Shown here piece after piece: positions 1-39,891 of a stretch of DNA of 39,891 bases. Where the stretch lies: the sequence record OR424387.1; one strand, written 5' to 3'. How positions within the stretch are numbered: the stretch's first letter is position 1; every line of letters begins with the position of its first letter. A program made the translations under genes and the position numbers. Below the pieces are notes generated by a model. It saw only the letters and a program-made list of their open reading frames with translations, ran no database searches and was not told the origin of the DNA. Source of the stretch: Escherichia phage HEMP4.

Positions 1-127
1 CATGGCATTTTTCATGGTACTGATTTCCGGTGACGGTATATAAAACGGTACGATAAAAATTGAGATTTGGAAAAATGTTATCACTCAATTGGTTATGGTT
101 ATCGTAAATAATTGAGTGGGAATGATT
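1..127. repeat. Terminal direct repeat, copy 1 (identical to 39765..39891)
   Basis: First 127 nt of window match last 127 nt exactly by direct comparison; truncated by window edge so true length may be longer. Confidence 0.9.
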
Positions 128-1568: not shown

Positions 1569-1577
1569 TTTTGCCCG

Positions 1578-1842
1578 GCACATCCCTGTGCCGCCGCCGT
1601 CAGAAGAATCCTGCCTTGTCGTTGATGTACTCCGCGTGGGTCTGGATATCACGCAGGCATTTGCTCACACCGACGATGTAGCAGAACATGGTGGTCAGCT
1701 CCGCCGCCGCGCCCGATACGTCGTGCCCGTCTTCCTGTAACTGGTTCAGCAGATTCATCAGCAGTGAGTTCTCCGTCAGGCCGAGAACACCAGACGGAGA
1801 ATGAATCAGACTGCGGTAGCCGGGCTTCAGTGGGGCGCTGTA
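1578..1842. repeat. Internal direct repeat copy A (about 265 bp, about 96 percent identical to 33780..34045)
   Basis: Direct alignment by eye; covers 3-prime coding end and 3-prime UTR hairpin (GGCACA-nnnn-TGTGCC) of antirepressor-like gene. Confidence 0.85.
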
Positions 1843-2256
1843 TTCTTTTTTGTCTTCCAGCTTGATCGCCTCCATAATGGCGGGCATGAAGCCTGACAAG
1901 ACCTTCTCCACTTTTGTTTCTTGTTGTCTTAAACGTTTCTCGCATTCAATGAAGTAGCGTCGTACCTGACGACCTTTTTCGTTACGCTCGACCATTGCTA
2001 GTTCTTTGGCTGTATCGAGGGTGAGGTGGTACTCTTTGCGGTTGTGGCCGCCTCTACCAGATGTTTGCTTTCCCAAATTGGAAAGCAAAATATAGTCTTG
2101 ATTTTCAATGAATTCGTATTCTGAAATGCGATTTGTAATCCATGCTGCAAACACCTTTTTAACACCTAAAAAAGCGTGCAGATCGCGGGCATTGCAAAGT
2201 AGGGCTGTTTCGTTAGATATAGTGCCGTTGAATACGGGGATGAGTTGACTGGTCAT
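1600..2256 (-). CDS. Antirepressor-like protein, AntA-type N-terminal domain plus shared C-terminal domain
   Basis: ORF track 1600..2286; ATG at 2256 preceded by AGGAGG SD; N-terminal [12 protein letters not shown]...[14 protein letters not shown] resembles AntA/AntB antirepressor domain; C-terminal 80 aa identical to C-terminus of 33803..34513 and homologous to 34829..35086. Confidence 0.6.
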
Positions 2257-2580
2257 GATGACCTCCTTTGAAGTTTTAGTTAGCAATCACCAGTTAGTAG
2301 CTGGTGATCGGGTGTCAACTAGAGCCTTCAAAGACGCTCCGGGCATATTCCCCTTTTGGGTATTGTATTACGCCTCTCCACCCGACCTTTGTACGGATGT
2401 GACTATGCCAAATTGCAGGCATAAAAAAGCCGCAAAGCTATCGGGTGCGGGTGACCGCTTTGAAGTTCTAGTGCGGTCAGTATGCGATAGCTCTGGCGGC
2501 ATTGTCAAATCATGCGCCACTGAGTCCAGCAATCTCTGCAATACCAATAGCGAGATAATCGCGATTCGTCAGGCGTGATT

Positions 2581-2829
2581 TTATTGCATATGTCTTAGCT
2601 CCACTGAAGTTGTGATTTTATATGGGTTGCCTTTTACCTCAATAACACGATGAGGATCATTTTTTAGCTCTTCCGTAATCTTCCGTAATCTTCTAACAGC
2701 TGAACTTCGGTGTTTATAACGGTAAGTTACAGTTTCTTTTCTCTGCAATACCTCATCATTGCGGTACTTAGTCAAAACCATGACGACTTCAAACCTGACG
2801 CCGTTGTGTGCAACCATAATCTGCTTCAT
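2581..2829 (-). CDS. Hypothetical protein (82 aa)
   Basis: ORF in operon context; internal ATG start overlaps stop of upstream methylase gene (translational coupling); contains 10-bp tandem repeat 2671..2690. Confidence 0.4.
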   Translation of the reverse strand: MKQIMVAHNGVRFEVVMVLTKYRNDEVLQRKETVTYRYKHRSSAVRRLRKITEELKNDPHRVIEVKGNPYKITTSVELRHMQ

Positions 2830-6479: not shown

Positions 6480-7064
6480 TTATTGTTTGCTTTTTTCGTT
6501 CTGGTTGATGACAAATTCAATGTAACTTTCGATCTTTGCTTTCTCGGTTTCGGGTAACAATGCGTAGCGCGAGCGGTCATAGTTGATAGTCGCAGGGTCG
6601 TGCGGGTGAATCAGTAATTCATAGCCGTGACGCCCGAATGCGGATGCAACATTCTCCAGGGTGGAAATGGAAACGCTGACCTCATTGTTTAACAGGCGGC
6701 TGATTGTCACCTGGGCGACGCCGGATGCGCGGTGAAGTTTTCCCTGTGTTGAAAGGTCGCGGCTTTCGCTCATCCAGCGTTCCAGGTTGTGAGCCGCCAG
6801 CTGACCAATGTCGCTTGGGCCGACAGGCTGAAAACCTTCCTGAGAAAGCGAGCGATCGATATCAAGCCAGTTACGGGGTTTATTGGCGGCAGCTTCAATT
6901 TTTCGCGCAACCTGGTCGCCGATAACCTTCTTACCAAGAGCCCAGCGGTTTACCAGATTTGCCTGAGTTCCAAGTTTTTCTGCCATCCGCGTCTGAACAC
7001 CATTGAATTCACGGTCGATCAAGTCGTTGAGATTTTGCCTGCGGACGTCCTGGATACTTTTCAT
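6480..7064 (-). CDS. Putative prophage repressor (HTH, no recognisable S24 peptidase domain)
   Basis: 194 aa, divergent from Cro-like gene with operator cluster between; N-terminal HTH-like segment TRMAEKLGTQANLVNRWALGKK; no Ala-Gly/Ser-Lys autocleavage module seen; no SD upstream of ATG. Confidence 0.55.
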   Translation of the reverse strand: MKSIQDVRRQNLNDLIDREFNGVQTRMAEKLGTQANLVNRWALGKKVIGDQVARKIEAAANKPRNWLDIDRSLSQEGFQPVGPSDIGQLAAHNLERWMSESRDLSTQGKLHRASGVAQVTISRLLNNEVSVSISTLENVASAFGRHGYELLIHPHDPATINYDRSRYALLPETEKAKIESYIEFVINQNEKSKQ

Positions 7065-7119: not shown

Positions 7120-7182
7120 TTACCCAACAGGTAAATGCACCCCATAGGTAACTATCCTTGATTTTTGTTACCTTATGGGTGA
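7120..7182. promoter_or_regulatory. Right operator cluster: three TTACC-N5-GGTAA-type sites (7120..7134 perfect, 7137..7151 8/10, 7168..7182 9/10)
   Basis: ttacccaacaggtaa, gcaccccataggtaa, ttaccttatgggtga within the 154-bp divergent intergenic region. Confidence 0.6.
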
Positions 7183-15820: not shown

Positions 15821-15897
15821 TGGCGCGGCATGCAGGATTCGAACCTGCGACCAACCGCTTAGAAGGCGGTTGCTCTGTCCAACTGAGCTAATGCCAC
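15821..15897 (-). tRNA. tRNA-Arg (anticodon UCU)
   Basis: Reverse complement folds as cloverleaf: acceptor GTGGCAT/ATGCCGC (one G-U), D-arm GCTC-AGTTGGACA-GAGC, anticodon stem ACCGC/GCGGT with loop CTTCTAA (anticodon TCT), T-arm GCAGG-TTCGAAT-CCTGC, discriminator G, CCA end; 77 nt. Confidence 0.85.
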
Positions 15898-33779: not shown

Positions 33780-34045
33780 GCACATCCCTGTGCCGCCGCC
33801 CGTCAGAAGAACCCAGCCTTGTCGTTGATGTACTCCGCGTGGGTCTGGATATCACGCAGGCATTTGCTCACACCGACGATGTAGCAGAACATGGTGGTCA
33901 GCTCCGCCGCCGCGCCCGATACGTCGTGCCCGTCTTCCTGTAACTGGTTCAGCAGATTCATCAGCAGTGAGTTCTCCGTCAGGCCGAGAACACCAGACGG
34001 CGAATGAATCAGGCTACGGTAGCCGGGCTTCAGTGGGGCACTGTA
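33780..34045. repeat. Internal direct repeat copy B (matches 1578..1842)
   Basis: Same as copy A. Confidence 0.85.
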
Positions 34046-34513
34046 GGTTTTGTTCTCTATCTTCATCGCCTGCATTACTGCTGACGCCGTGGCGTTGGCT
34101 ACCTGGTCGGCAACCATCTTTATGCGTTCTTCCTGCGGGAGCGAGTTTTTAATGTAACTTCCGGTGCGGCGGATCTGAGGAAGAACCTCACCTGTAACCC
34201 ATTTACGAAAGCGGTAGGGGATAGTGCCTGGTGTCACTGCGTCGCGGCAGCGGAGGATCAGTGTGTAGAGGCCTGACTCGGAGATGATGTTGATCTCTTT
34301 TACTCGGCTGTCAAAAATTGCACGATGTTCATGCCCTATGTTGAACATAGACCTTTCATCATCATCCAGTTTTTCAAGTGCTTGGGTGACGTTTTGGATG
34401 CGCAGCGCACTACAAACGTCTTGGGCTACAAACCATGGTTGGCCATCGATAATGATGGAACGGATAGGGTTAACAGATTCAAATTTGAAGATGGCAGTTT
34501 GAGCATTAGCCAT
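33803..34513 (-). CDS. Bro-N domain antirepressor-like protein with shared C-terminal domain
   Basis: ATG at 34513 (ORF track GTG 34528); N-terminal AIFKFESVNPIRSIIIDGQPWFVAQDVCSAL is classic Bro-N; C-terminal 80 aa identical to C-terminus of 1600..2256 gene. Confidence 0.75.
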   Translation of the reverse strand: MANAQTAIFKFESVNPIRSIIIDGQPWFVAQDVCSALRIQNVTQALEKLDDDERSMFNIGHEHRAIFDSRVKEINIISESGLYTLILRCRDAVTPGTIPYRFRKWVTGEVLPQIRRTGSYIKNSLPQEERIKMVADQVANATASAVMQAMKIENKTYSAPLKPGYRSLIHSPSGVLGLTENSLLMNLLNQLQEDGHDVSGAAAELTTMFCYIVGVSKCLRDIQTHAEYINDKAGFF

Positions 34514-34667
34514 GGTGGTTATCTCCACTTAGTGATTTTAATCACCACCGCAACGCCAATTACTGGTGGTGAACTGGACAAGGTTGGCGTACCGGCCTAA
34601 GTGGTACCGGCGTCCTTTCGGACCCCTGCCCAGCCCACCATAATTCGGATATAGCTGTGCTTAACGC

Positions 34668-34780
34668 ATAAAAAAACCACGTCTGGCGTGGTATGCGCCA
34701 CTTAGTAACTCGGGACGCCAATCCCGGCACTGGATTTTGCCAGTGCCTGATTACTATGGCACAAGAGGAGTGCGATGTAA
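34668..34780 (-). ncRNA. Candidate structured small RNA or leader upstream of Bro-N gene
   Basis: Minus-strand noncoding segment with stem-loops GGCACTGG-caaaat-CCAGTGCC and CGGGA-ttggcg-TCCCG, ending in terminator ACCACG-ccaga-CGTGGT plus U7; begins just downstream of operator-like site. Confidence 0.3.
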
Positions 34781-34782
34781 AT

Positions 34783-34797
34783 TTACCGCAAAGGTAA
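34783..34797. promoter_or_regulatory. Operator-like palindrome TTACC-N5-GGTAA
   Basis: ttaccgcaaaggtaa, perfect. Confidence 0.5.
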
Positions 34798-34828
34798 ATA
34801 TAAGCACTCCACTTGGTAATTGCAAACC

Positions 34829-35086
34829 TTATCTGGTTTGCTTTCGTAATTGTTCGGCACAATAGTCGAGATGTGTTTGCAGATCCCGCATAGACATCTG
34901 TGAGCTGGTGACGTAGTTAATCAGTGCAGTCAGTTCGGCAAGTGGGCCATCGACATTAAATCCATCCTTATCGAGATCCCGGAGTAATTTCATCAAGTGC
35001 GATCCCTCCACCAGTGACCTGACGCCTCCCGGCGTGTGAATCCTTTCGGTAAATCCGTCTTCCAGTGGATAGTGATACTGCTGCAT
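34829..35086 (-). CDS. Small antirepressor-like protein (85 aa), free-standing homolog of the shared C-terminal domain; LexA box upstream
   Basis: ATG 35086 with GGAGAA SD (ORF track TTG 35104); IHTPGGVRSLVEGSHLMKLL...DGPLAELTALINYVTSSQMSMRDLQTHLDY aligns with [20 protein letters not shown]...[30 protein letters not shown] of the two larger proteins. Confidence 0.6.
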   Translation of the reverse strand: MQQYHYPLEDGFTERIHTPGGVRSLVEGSHLMKLLRDLDKDGFNVDGPLAELTALINYVTSSQMSMRDLQTHLDYCAEQLRKQTR

Positions 35087-35105: not shown

Positions 35106-35125
35106 AACTGTATAAATATACAGTA
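35106..35125. promoter_or_regulatory. LexA (SOS) box
   Basis: aaCTGTataaatatACAGta: CTGT-N8-ACAG with AT-rich spacer, matching consensus; 20 bp upstream of small Ant-like gene start. Confidence 0.7.
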
Positions 35126-35162
35126 TCAAATAATTTGTTTGCTATCCAGCACGTTTTGCAAA

Positions 35163-35177
35163 TCACCTGAAAGGTAA
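35163..35177. promoter_or_regulatory. Operator-like site (9/10 match, TCACC-N5-GGTAA)
   Basis: tcacctgaaaggtaa between LexA box and tailspike start. Confidence 0.4.
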
Positions 35178-39764: not shown

Positions 39765-39891
39765 CATGGCATTTTTCATGGTACTGATTTCCGGTGACGG
39801 TATATAAAACGGTACGATAAAAATTGAGATTTGGAAAAATGTTATCACTCAATTGGTTATGGTTATCGTAAATAATTGAGTGGGAATGATT
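39765..39891. repeat. Terminal direct repeat, copy 2 (identical to 1..127)
   Basis: Exact match to window start. Confidence 0.9.

Follow-up and report, generated by a model that had tools for sequence, protein, structure and literature searches.

How can a prophage of the phiV10/epsilon15-like group carry two extra antirepressor genes without inducing itself? The question arises for Escherichia phage HEMP4, an integrating podovirus of 39.8 kb, whose sequence (OR424387.1; 39,891 nt, referred to here as the window) has a leader of about 300 nt upstream of each of two antirepressor genes. A sequence-only reading of this DNA had described these leaders as long, structured and non-coding, and so they proved: 2257..2580 and 34514..34828 are both non-coding spacers between minus-strand genes. 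We conclude that both are very probably antisense-RNA immunity modules of the P1 immI type and that, by analogy, they most likely keep the antirepressor genes untranslated in the lysogen, which would account for the two extra genes being carried without self-induction. The two modules have two different specificities. In each, the order on the minus strand is promoter, short 5′ RNA, structured RNA of ~80 nt and antirepressor RBS.

The regulated genes and their context

The analysis establishes by computation to which families the RNAs belong, how they fold, where they are complementary and covary, which promoter and terminator motifs are present and what the genes are. The genes behind the leaders, ant1 and ant2, are both chimeric (Table 1), and their C-terminal domains are identical in protein sequence; a 259-nt direct repeat at 1597-1855 and 33800-34058 has 96% identity. 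ant1 matches phrog_130 and phrog_450, and its residues 155-231 match PDB 5D50_E (E = 1.2e-13); a search of NCBIfam with the antirepressors gave nothing useful. The stand-alone 85-aa antirepressor that adjoins module 1 also matches PDB 5D50_E, 'Anti-repressor protein' (E = 1.4e-46), and shares 40% identity with the C-terminal domains of both chimeras; no similarity was found between this ORF and a small ORF that lies close to the tail genes in Gifsy-1. The LexA box in its promoter is kept in phiV10 apart from a single spacer substitution. The Rep-type repressor of the phage, encoded at 6480..7064, matches PDB 5D50_A (3.5e-42) and consists of an HTH only, no S24 peptidase domain having been found in it. 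Both traits, a Rep that lacks a peptidase domain and a small Ant preceded by a LexA box, are hallmarks of the SPC32H Rep/Ant pair, in which ant is under dual control by Rep and LexA.

Inverted repeats of the TTACC-N5-GGTAA family occur at 14 sites genome-wide with at most one mismatch, against 0.63 expected, and three of these sites lie in the rep-cro intergenic region. The member beside the module-1 promoter, centred near -44 and with arms that are kept in phiV10, is a presumed binding site of the SPC32H-type Rep repressor.

Structured RNAs in the two leaders

Rfam models identify three RNAs in the leaders, all above the curated gathering thresholds: isrK (34670-34746; 67.2 bits, threshold 50) and the C4 antisense RNA (66.0 bits, threshold 45) in module 1, and sRNA-Xcc1, family RF02221, in module 2. 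The c4-a1b1 model matches module 1 over its full length at 42.8 bits (E = 4.7e-9), against a gathering threshold of 46.7. The isrK match is the very element, two stem-loops and a terminator, that the sequence-only reading had singled out. That reading put this terminator-ended 5′ RNA forward as its candidate small RNA; the likely regulator is instead the ~75-nt C4 RNA downstream of it, and the 5′ RNA carries the putative decoy sites a1 and b1. Nor does the novelty that it implied hold; the families are already catalogued in Rfam.

The module-1 promoter is a modest match to the consensus (9 of 12 positions). Its predicted start falls on position 1 of the isrK model, and the geometry from promoter to isrK is that of Gifsy-1. 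The suggestion of a structured leader bears up well under folding, for the minimum-energy fold of the window's C4 is the family structure, in which 16 of 23 pairs carry compensatory changes among 46 homologues. The C4 RNA has sequence hallmarks of the RNase P type (5′ AUUAU^GGUGGG and a 3′ CACCACC tail), and alignment with the annotated P1 c4 places the predicted mature RNA at ~34639..34565. The ATG of ant1 is at 34513.

In module 2 the promoter match is again modest (10 of 12 positions). The terminator scan found no terminator in this leader, and the hairpin that occupies the corresponding place has an 11-nt loop and folds weakly, so that an internal terminator in leader 2 stays tentative. 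The mature sRNA-Xcc1-class RNA is predicted to span ~2387..2303, its loop and junction covary with flanking sites, and ant2 begins with an ATG at 2256. The partner of a′ is ambiguous in this module: it is either a 6-bp site, G-U included, upstream of b2 or a 7-bp site past the ATG (the candidate a2 of Table 1), for which covariation with a′ was not found in the three specificities compared. The integron-cassette context and the HrpG-HrpX control of the founding Xanthomonas sRNA-Xcc1 were not found at this locus, a phage antirepressor leader.

Table 1. Features of the two modules and of the adjoining genes in the window (promoters, RNA ends and pairing roles are predictions)
Feature	Position	Strand	Description
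Operator-like inverted repeat ATTTACC-N5-GGTAAAT	34781..34799		Abuts -35 hexamer of module-1 promoter
Module-1 promoter-like site	34753..34781	-	TTTACA, 17 nt, CATAGT, upstream TG; predicted start ~34746
isrK-like RNA (likely equivalent of c4-a1b1 leader)	34669..34746	-	Two 5′ hairpins, then terminator
Site a1, UUGGCGU	34715..34721	-	Loop of hairpin 2 of isrK-like RNA
Site b1, CUAAGUGG	34698..34705	-	Single-stranded in isrK-like RNA
Rho-independent terminator	34676..34692 + U7	-	From terminator scan
C4 antisense RNA	34562..34645	-	Rfam, full-length model match; long closing stem
C4 hairpin 1	within 34562..34645	-	GAAA loop
b′ loop of C4 hairpin 2, CCACUUAG	34597..34604	-	
a′ junction of C4, ACGCCAA	34584..34590	-	
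ant1 mRNA target region	34523..34559	-	a2, b2, SD
Site a2, UUGGCGU	34553..34559	-	7 bp with a′
Site b2, CUAAGUGG	34525..34532	-	8 bp with b′; overlaps SD GGAG 34523..34526
Module-2 promoter-like site	2479..2508	-	TTGACA, 18 nt, CATACT; predicted start ~2472
Module-2 5′ RNA	2421..2472	-	ACUAGA 2467..2472
Module-2 b1, CUUCAAAG	2458..2465	-	Covaries
Module-2 terminator-like hairpin CCGCA...UGCGG	2430..2450	-	Then C + U6 (2423..2428)
sRNA-Xcc1-family RNA, C4-like	2298..2387	-	62.9 bits, gathering threshold 53
Module-2 b′, CUUUGAAG	2326..2333	-	Hairpin-2 loop
Module-2 a′ junction, UAGUUGA	2315..2321	-	RNA has 3′ CACCA tail
ant2 mRNA target region	2243..2273	-	
Module-2 b2, CUUCAAAG	2266..2273	-	Overlaps SD AAGGAGG 2262..2268; covaries
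Candidate a2, GUCAACU	2243..2249	-	Codons 3-5 of ant2; position kept in three specificities
ant1, chimeric antirepressor	33803..34513	-	N-terminal Bro-N (9.6e-20) + C-terminal SPC32H-Ant-like domain
ant2, chimeric antirepressor	1600..2256	-	N-terminal AntA (4.2e-26) + SPC32H-type C-terminal domain
Stand-alone 85-aa SPC32H-type Ant	34829..35086	-	Adjoins module 1 upstream; context, not leader
LexA box TACTGTATATTTATACAGTT	35107..35126	-	In promoter of 85-aa ant

Pairing between the RNAs and their flanking sites

The b′ loop and the a′ junction of the C4 RNA are complementary to the upstream a1/b1 and the downstream a2/b2. Duplex energies were calculated from short segments, because RNAduplex on full-length RNAs is blind to intramolecular structure and gave meaningless long duplexes. 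For module 1 they are -12.6 (b′ with b2), -14.5 (b′ with b1), -11.6 (a′ with a2) and -17.9 kcal/mol (a′ with a1), and for module 2 -12.0 (b′ with b2) and -12.3 kcal/mol (b′ with b1); pairing across modules with the RBS targets reaches only -4 to -6 kcal/mol. The second pairing, of ACGCCAA with the two UUGGCGU sites, had been missed by the sequence-only reading, which saw the b sites alone.

The three b sites change together. In module 1, b1/b′/b2 read CUAAGUGG/CCACUUAG/CUAAGUGG in the window and CUAAAAGG/CCUUUUAG/CUAAAAGG in phiV10; in module 2 the switch is from CUUCAAAG/CUUUGAAG/CUUCAAAG in the window to CAAAUAAG/CUUAUUUG/CAAAUAAG in an Stx1 phage. Loop and target also covary beyond these relatives, in ~100 unrelated contigs of viral origin for each class of RNA. 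The C4 set comprised 102 loci with 90 different loops, and loops mismatched with flanks served as controls. A perfect complement of the loop, at least 7 nt long, lies 47-57 nt downstream in 75% of these loci (4.4% in controls) and upstream in 61% (4.3% in controls), and the next start codon follows 60-73 nt past the core. On covariation of a′ the set is uninformative, since the pattern by which it was gathered fixes the hairpin-2 stem and GCCAA. Loci of the sRNA-Xcc1 type show two pairing peaks, at the loop and at the junction, in 25-46% against 1-3% in controls. The genes downstream of these RNAs are mostly of antirepressor type (Bro-N, Rha, KilA-N, P22_AR, AntA), as is mostly true of the next gene in the 92 viral loci with sRNA-Xcc1-type RNAs.

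The repeated motif CCACTTAGT had been counted three times in sense orientation. It is exact at two sites only, 34525..34533 and 34698..34706; the third, CCACTTGGT at 34809..34817, has one mismatch. As a target this near-copy was rejected, because it is the same in phiV10 despite the different b′ there and offers 6 bp only; inexact and lacking covariation in phiV10, it probably lies outside the system. The complement, CCTAAGTGG, does occur once, at 34596..34604, and motif and complement pair over the ant1 RBS as had been supposed. The 8-mer CTAAGTGG/CCACTTAG is found three times in the 39.9-kb window, always inside the same 180 nt; ~0.68 occurrences would be expected in the window, and three were reached in 3 of 100 shuffles, and the probability that three random sites fall within 181 nt of one another is ~6e-5 by an arithmetic estimate. 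Being clustered, and having a fixed geometry, this arrangement is non-random.

Two strings had further been said to be common to both leaders, and both are indeed present in each: GCATAAAAAA at 2419..2428 and 34666..34675, and ATGCGCCACT at 2512..2521 and 34693..34702. The first is the opposite-strand reading of the U-tail of both 5′ RNAs. The second, extended to the 14-mer ATGCGCCACT[G/T]AGT, does not serve as a common functional motif, for it lies within the b1 site in leader 1 and upstream of the -35 hexamer in leader 2, where it is just outside the Stx-homologous block. The 14-mer region of leader 2 gives a weak local alignment with the isrK-like RNA, and the 14-mer may be a recombination relic.

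A model for antirepressor silencing, and its rivals

Transcription of module 1 would begin at the promoter, at ~34746, and most transcripts would end at the terminator, yielding a short RNA of the isrK kind with a1 and b1; those that read through would comprise the C4 RNA and the antirepressor mRNA. If P1 is a guide, RNase P would cut at the 5′ GG of the long stem and a stable C4 RNA of ~75 nt would accumulate, whose b′ and a′ would pair with the ant mRNA at b2 and a2. Because b2 overlaps the Shine-Dalgarno sequence, we propose that ribosome loading is thereby blocked and the antirepressor is not made. The same repression should apply to a superinfecting phage of like specificity. The a1 and b1 sites of the short isrK-like RNA can pair with the same C4 surfaces, and this RNA is therefore most likely a competitor, a decoy that sets a threshold; such a role agrees with the finding in Gifsy-1 that anrP translation is activated when IsrK is provided in trans. 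Module 2 would follow the same scheme, with an RNA of the sRNA-Xcc1 class and an orthogonal recognition sequence. For processing, translational block, trans action and decoy role the model draws on experiments with P1 and Gifsy-1. The P1 c4 RNA is processed by RNase P from a longer transcript into a stable, trans-acting RNA of ~77 nt, and roles are assigned to its a′ and b′, in the summary given by PMC5320573; by analogy, the C4 RNA of HEMP4 would likewise be excised, be stable and act in trans.

Might the short RNA act positively instead? The locus is homologous to isrK-orf45-anrP of Gifsy-1, for which fusions, mutants and footprinting back positive control by IsrK (PMC4825925): the short isrK RNA frees the RBS of an upstream ORF ('orf45') in a long transcript otherwise locked in an inactive fold, this uORF is coupled to the antirepressor, and a separate C4 repressor is not essential. 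We consider such control unlikely in HEMP4. A coupled uORF of the isrK type was not found in module 1, where the ORF from the conserved C4 AUGG is 14 codons long, with its stop codon within the b′ loop and ~85 nt short of the beginning of ant1, making coupling to ant1 impossible. Its length is not conserved across loci, ranging from 4 to 343 codons over 67 of them, with 11 only that end near the downstream start, and the region is conserved as RNA structure. Moreover, b2 lies on the antirepressor's own SD in the window, phiV10, Gifsy-1 and P1.

A leader that acts purely in cis, through attenuation at the terminator and a local hairpin over the RBS with no diffusible RNA, is very unlikely. A terminator is present, and a hairpin, GGUGGU...ACCACC, does enclose the ant1 RBS; it extends as far as the AUG and reads AGUGGU...ACCACU in phiV10, one compensatory change. 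Neither the concerted change of three separate sites nor the loop-target rule in ~100 unrelated loci would be explained in this way, however, and both P1 c4 and the STnc1160 of Gifsy-1 have been documented as stable RNAs (PMC5320573, PMC4825925).

That the spacers encode small proteins is hardly credible. A 100-aa minus-strand ORF (34560..34862) and a 107-aa plus-strand ORF (2255..2578) exist mechanically, and the latter matches phrog_38841 (2.9e-56) and appears as a 'hypothetical protein' in Stx phages, ORF11 in phage P13374; but both show frame-breaking indels of 1, 2 and 3 nt against close relatives, substitutions in the spacers are compensatory and concentrated in paired RNA sites, and phrog_38841 is most simply seen as ORFs mis-called over conserved RNA. 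Control of the P22 sar type, by an opposite-strand small RNA across the ant RBS, can be dismissed almost outright: the general analogy alone, drawn also by the sequence-only reading, speaks for it, whereas all elements, the complementary one included, lie on the ant strand and upstream of ant, the search for sar gave no match even at E up to 1, and the promoter scan of the leader gave none on the plus strand.

Implications

The spacers should be annotated as isrK/c4-a1b1 plus C4 and as sRNA-Xcc1, and 'hypothetical protein' ORFs called over such spacers, such as phrog_38841 and P13374 ORF11, are probably spurious. We predict heteroimmunity between module 1 and phiV10, and homoimmunity between module 2 and those Stx2 phages in which the loop is the same.

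Judged by sequence comparison, IsrK is a homologue of the P1 a1b1 leader, 'orf45/STnc1160' is a C4 RNA, and phage RNAs of the sRNA-Xcc1 class, lying upstream of antirepressor genes, obey the loop-target rule too. The homology of IsrK with a1b1 and the rule for sRNA-Xcc1 stand apart in the literature searched and are joined here; both are visible in the Rfam matches.

A wider scheme may be sketched tentatively. Three copies of one Rep-binding antirepressor domain would be held on separate channels (LexA for Ant, C4 for Bro-N-Ant and an orthogonal sRNA-Xcc1-class RNA for AntA-Ant), and the short a1b1 RNAs would be dedicated C4 sponges. The Rep-operator-flanked promoter would fix how many transcripts terminate relative to those that read through, and this ratio would act as an SOS-independent switch for induction or anti-immunity. 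Module 2, which has the specificity of the antB leaders in Stx2 phages such as P13374, could also silence a co-resident Stx phage or be silenced by it. Taken as a whole this scheme is speculative and rather doubtful.

Comparison with known systems

In P22 sar/immI the antirepressor is also silenced at the RNA level, but by a true opposite-strand antisense transcript. The CI RNA of the phage-plasmid P4 (seqA, seqC) is a processed small RNA with one upstream and one downstream site on the same transcript, and the outcome, as outlined in PMC4825925, is premature termination of transcription of the replication genes rather than a block of antirepressor translation. IsrK was called a structural homologue of P4 seqA by the Gifsy-1 authors (PMC4825925).

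The antB/ant leaders of Stx phages (LC710660, P13374; annotated sRNA-Xcc1) are 97.5% identical to module 2 and have identical b1/b′/b2, differing upstream of the promoter (homology starts at ~2511) and in genome context. In the literature searched, sRNA-Xcc1 is a virulence-linked sRNA of Xanthomonas, and a link to the c4 mechanism was not found there. APSE phages of Hamiltonella, another phage group in another host, carry isrK and c4 upstream of a Bro-N gene (PMC7313666). This is the same Rfam pair, described by annotation only, and its a′/b′ have matches in the non-coding stretch that precedes the neighbouring Bro-N gene.

In Gifsy-1, IsrK supplied in trans raises the translation of anrP by a factor of 139, the isrK promoter is required for STnc1160, and Hfq binding and trans activation of antirepressor translation are experimental properties of IsrK (Hershko-Shalev et al. 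2016, PMC4825925). The authors' account is one of uORF coupling and alternative mRNA folds, not of C4 titration, and the compensatory pairs that they tested were G28-C162 and G31-C159 (PMC4825925); by position counting, both fall in a1/a′. Scored with the same models, isrK-'orf45'-anrP gives 79.3 (isrK), 48.1 (c4-a1b1) and 69 bits (C4). In Gifsy-1 too, an antirepressor is preceded by these three Rfam elements in matching order, with the same a1/a′/a2 (UUGGCGU/ACGCCAA) and the same promoter-to-isrK geometry as in module 1. The differences are in b′, CGGUGAU compared with CCACUUAG, and in the ORF, which in Gifsy-1 runs for 45 codons through C4 to the anrP start, compared with 14 codons in module 1.

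The immI region of P1 and P7, with a c4 antisense RNA, a1/b1 and a2/b2, and icd-ant, was reportedly described by Citron and Schuster in 1990. The P1 region scores 68.8 bits with C4 (RF01695), 51 with c4-a1b1 (RF03163) and 35.1 with isrK (RF01394), and its elements follow the same order: a repressor operator at the promoter, a1, b1, a terminator-like hairpin, c4, a2, b2 and the start codon. The spacings are close as well (a1-b1 7 nt in P1 and 9 in module 1, a2-b2 22 and 20, b2-ATG 10 and 11). The RNAs share the fold, with b′ in the hairpin-2 loop, a′ in the junction and b2 on the RBS, as well as the 5′ GG and the 3′ CACC tail, and a switch of specificity takes the form of sites changing in concert, as P1 and P7 illustrate. 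The recognition sequences themselves differ, a′ being CUGUCAA and a1/a2 UUGACAG in P1, compared with ACGCCAA and UUGGCGU in module 1. The icd ORF of P1 is absent from both modules of HEMP4, where the start codon of the antirepressor comes straight after b2; the antirepressor itself is therefore the direct target, and the P1 rule that ant transcription needs icd translation is inapplicable. The antirepressors, which join Bro-N or AntA to an SPC32H-Ant domain, also differ from that of P1, and P1 is a plasmid prophage whereas HEMP4 integrates. We conclude that HEMP4 carries the P1-type c4 device already known and no new kind of system. The sequence-only reading had called the leaders reminiscent of c4, and the likeness goes further than that, the proposed mechanism being of the c4 kind and the RNAs members of the curated C4, isrK and sRNA-Xcc1 families.

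Two leaders with RNAs of known families

Scanned against Rfam at curated thresholds, the window gave three matches in the two spacers: isrK and C4 antisense RNA in module 1, the leader of the Bro-N-type gene ant1, and sRNA-Xcc1 in module 2, the leader of the AntA-type gene ant2. Relaxed thresholds added c4-a1b1 ('a1, b1 targets of C4 antisense RNA'), which covers the 5' half of the isrK match and falls slightly under the cut-off (42.8 bits, E 4.7e-9), but gave no match to sar in the window. The sequence-only reading had likened the leaders to both P1 c4 and P22 sar; the C4 match upholds the first likeness and not the second. The two non-coding spacers of that reading (34514..34828 and 2257..2580), their two shared strings, the terminator and the complement of a recurring motif are all present where that reading placed them. 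The motif itself, CCACTTAGT, was said to occur three times, but is exact at only two places, the third copy (34809..34817) carrying one mismatch. Across the whole window there are three occurrences of the 8-mer CTAAGTGG/CCACTTAG, compared with 0.68 expected, and they fall within a span of 180 nt.

The two leaders are read on the minus strand, since this is the strand of both antirepressor-like genes. For module 1, transcription is predicted to start at ∼34746, which coincides with nucleotide 1 of the isrK model. The 5' RNA has two hairpins, with the upstream site a1 (UUGGCGU) in the loop of the second, followed by the single-stranded upstream site b1 (CUAAGUGG) and a terminator with U7. The C4 RNA begins 23 nt past this terminator and comprises a 17-bp closing stem, a GAAA-capped hairpin, a second hairpin with the pairing loop b' (CCACUUAG), the single-stranded junction a' (ACGCCAA) and a 3' tail, CACCACC. 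Downstream come a2 (UUGGCGU) and, 20 nt on, b2 (CUAAGUGG), whose final two bases also open the SD sequence GGAG, 9 nt ahead of the ant1 ATG. Module 2 has a short 5' RNA with b1 (CUUCAAAG), a terminator-like hairpin and U6, then the sRNA-Xcc1-class RNA, with CUUUGAAG as its hairpin-2 loop b', and finally b2 (CUUCAAAG), which overlaps AAGGAGG ahead of ant2. Cognate pairings are worth -12 to -18 kcal/mol, compared with -4 to -6 kcal/mol for cross-module pairings with the RBS sites.

Features of the two modules and of the Rep/Ant system
Feature	Position	Strand	Basis
isrK (module 1)	34670..34746	-	Rfam 67.2 bits
C4 antisense RNA (module 1)	34562..34645	-	Rfam 66 bits
sRNA-Xcc1 (module 2)	2298..2387	-	Rfam 62.9 bits
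Inverted repeat ATTTACC-N5-GGTAAAT, 5'-most part of module 1	34799..34781		
Promoter-like site TTTACA-17-CATAGT, TG upstream (module 1)	34781..34753	-	promoter scan
Promoter-like site TTGACA-18-CATACT (module 2)		-	promoter scan
85-aa ORF, SPC32H-type antirepressor Ant	34829..35086	-	PDB 5D50_E, E 1.4e-46
Near-consensus LexA box ahead of 85-aa ant	35107..35126		
194-aa HTH protein, SPC32H-type Rep	6480..7064	-	5D50_A, E 3.5e-42
TTACC-N5-GGTAA repeats (start positions)	261, 6346, 6408, 7120, 7137, 7168, 7505, 9407, 9469, 13009, 13027, 16220, 33722, 34783, 35163		

Several smaller features surround module 2. The sequence GUCAACU (2243..2249(-), ant2 codons 3-5) is perfectly complementary to AGUUGAC, the junction in the sRNA-Xcc1-class RNA, and is found at the same position, 7-8 nt past the ATG, in three relatives with differing b' loops, with no covariation by which to test its role. 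With this site, the RNA might thus clamp the ant2 start codon from both sides. Just 5' of the module-2 promoter, ACUCAGUGGCGCAU (2513..2526) is a one-mismatch copy of the module-1 b1 region. It stands exactly where homology to Stx-phage antB leaders ends, near 2511, and may be a relic of recombination between two leader types. A G+C-rich hairpin, CGGCACAGGGAUGUGCCG (1577..1593(-)), a few bases past the ant2 stop codon, probably terminates the ant2 transcript; Rfam gives a chance RsmV fragment there. Upstream of the module, an 83-aa ORF (phrog_9805) contains a tandem duplication of 10-nt period (AGATTACGGA twice, 2660..2690(-)).

Covariation of the pairing surfaces

Covariation, which the sequence-only reading had proposed as a check across related phages, is evident both in the concerted switching of b1, b' and b2 and in double changes within the C4 fold. 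Between the window and phiV10, CUAAGUGG/CCACUUAG/CUAAGUGG is replaced by CUAAAAGG/CCUUUUAG/CUAAAAGG, with a1, a' and a2 unchanged, and between module 2 and an Stx1 phage the switch is from CUUCAAAG/CUUUGAAG to CAAAUAAG/CUUAUUUG.

C4-type loci were gathered from viral contigs by a core pattern and sRNA-Xcc1-type loci by a second pattern. The C4 sample comprised 102 non-redundant loci out of a set in which 90 different loops occur. In 77 of the 102 the loop is perfectly complementary, over 7 nt or more, to a downstream site whose distance is fixed at 47-57 nt, compared with 4.4% when loops were matched to the flanks of other loci. These complements typically end in GGA or GGAG, and the next ORF starts 60-73 nt past the C4 core. 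An upstream complement is present in 61% of loci (4.3% in the control). For the sRNA-Xcc1 type, a positional scan picked out the hairpin-2 loop and the 3' junction as two surfaces for pairing, whose complements flank the RNA on both sides in 25-46% of the 110 loci, compared with 1-3% in controls. RNAalifold, applied to 46 diverse C4 sequences (P1, Gifsy-1 and the window among them), recovered the family fold, with 16 of 23 pairs kept through double changes; the hairpin-2 stem is invariant in this set only because the search pattern fixed it. The genes downstream of the collected loci are mostly of antirepressor types (Bro-N, Rha, KilA-N, P22_AR, AntA and ORF6N).

Coding potential of the spacers

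Might the spacers instead encode proteins? ORFs do run through both, and are broken by 1-3-nt indels in close relatives; on this comparison of sequences we regard the spacers as non-coding. Antisense to leader 2 runs an ORF (2255..2578(+); also L246 768..1160) that matches phrog_38841 and that Stx phage annotations list as a hypothetical protein. Its frame is broken by four 1-nt indels in a close relative, so that the match probably reflects a family of ORFs mis-called over conserved RNA. The coupling to an upstream ORF proposed for Gifsy-1 can be set aside for this phage. The ORF beginning at C4's conserved AUGG ('orf45' in Gifsy-1) is from 4 to 343 codons long across loci, and in the window it has 14 codons and stops in the b' loop, so such coupling cannot operate.

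Antirepressors, Rep and operators

The last 127 bases of the window (39765..39891) are identical to the first (1..127), so that the window represents one complete genome of 39,764 bp, which is circular or was assembled as a circle; it carries a tRNA-Arg gene (anticodon tct) at 15821..15897(-). Around the feature of the sequence-only reading, the window is 92-94% identical to Escherichia phages phiv142-3, ZX5 and phiV10, epsilon15-like podoviruses of the genus Uetakevirus.

The products of ant1 and ant2 share a C-terminal Ant-like domain, 40% identical to the stand-alone 85-aa Ant encoded immediately 5' of module 1. This domain, identical in Bro-N-Ant and AntA-Ant, is encoded by a 259-nt direct repeat (1597..1855 and 33800..34058, 96% identity), through which the two loci could potentially recombine. 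The Rep homologue has its HTH in the C-terminal half, and a domain search found no S24 peptidase domain in it; its inactivation, and hence induction, therefore needs antirepressors. In SPC32H no RNA module lies behind ant, which is followed directly by structural genes (L244 2195..2645). The isrK-C4-Bro-N block is thus a cassette added in the E. coli relatives, inserted after ant in both phiV10 and the window, where a 193-aa ORF (phrog_5954) is added.

The inverted repeat TTACC-N5-GGTAA occurs at 14 sites with at most one mismatch, compared with 0.63 expected; the copy at 7137 is more degenerate and lies outside the 14. Three copies, 7137 included, lie between rep and a cro-like gene and two downstream of rep, and from the ORF list nearly all are apparently intergenic. 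To judge by sequence, the repeats resemble operators for the SPC32H-type Rep and are spread over the genome much like the C1 operators in P1. The repeat at the module-1 promoter belongs to this family and is thus probably a Rep operator, the counterpart of the C1 operator Oc4 at the P1 c4 promoter. A further Rep-operator-like repeat (35163..35177) lies ∼40 bp upstream of the LexA box. At 34786..34794 the 5-bp spacer of the operator-like palindrome is inverted between the window (TTTGC) and phiV10 (GCAAA, same strand), with both arms conserved, and the phiV10 -35 region lacks 3 bp relative to the window.

Proposed mechanism

By analogy with P1, read-through transcripts from the module's own promoter would yield C4, which RNase P would cut at the 5' GG of its stem; such processing of P1 c4 is summarised in PMC5320573. 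C4 would then bind a2/b2 and keep ribosomes from loading on the mRNA of the antirepressor, both in cis and in trans. As the a1/b1 sites are also present on the short terminated RNA, it could bind the same C4 surfaces and is thus a plausible competitor, which agrees with the finding in Gifsy-1 that IsrK, acting in trans, activates anrP translation 139-fold (PMC4825925). These steps are inferred from P1 and Gifsy-1; structure, complementarity and covariation are what the sequences show directly.

The C4-class 3' tails can also pair with downstream complements, UCACCACC...GGUGGUGA in module 1 (34514..34549(-)) and CACCAG...CUGGUG in module 2 (2276..2306(-)), the latter with compensatory changes in the Stx1 relative (CGCCAG/CUGGCG). 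Together with the ant1 RBS hairpin, GGUGGU...ACCACC, these pairings may correspond to the alternative folds reported from Gifsy-1.

Comparison with known systems

The GenBank record of P1 gives the order C1 operator Oc4, two promoters, a1, b1, the 77-nt c4 RNA, a2, b2 and icd-ant, and in P1 immI the spacing of these parts is within 2 nt of that in module 1. P1 itself matches C4, c4-a1b1 and, under threshold, isrK in Rfam; the isrK RNA is therefore a homologue of the P1 a1b1 leader. Gifsy-1, in which IsrK was characterised (PMC4825925), has the same trio between antQ and anrP, with b2 (AUCACCG) adjoining the GGAGG of anrP, so that the 'orf45'/STnc1160 region of that study is a C4 RNA. Counting of positions places the compensatory pairs of that study, G28-C162 and G31-C159, in a1/a'. 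The same paper likens IsrK to P4 seqA and STnc1160 to P4 CI RNA. For APSE phages the arrangement of isrK, c4 and Bro-N has been noted previously (PMC7313666), and an sRNA-Xcc1 annotation already stands upstream of the antirepressor gene in at least two records of Stx2 phages (F039, F004).

We conclude that the regulatory device of the sequence-only reading is real and was correctly read, and that it is the P1 c4 system, which has been described before, has curated Rfam families and has been reported in the context of antirepressor genes. Finally, the antB1 leader of the O104:H4 Stx2 phage P13374 has b1, b' and b2 identical to those of module 2, and cross-immunity between the two is therefore predicted at the RNA level.
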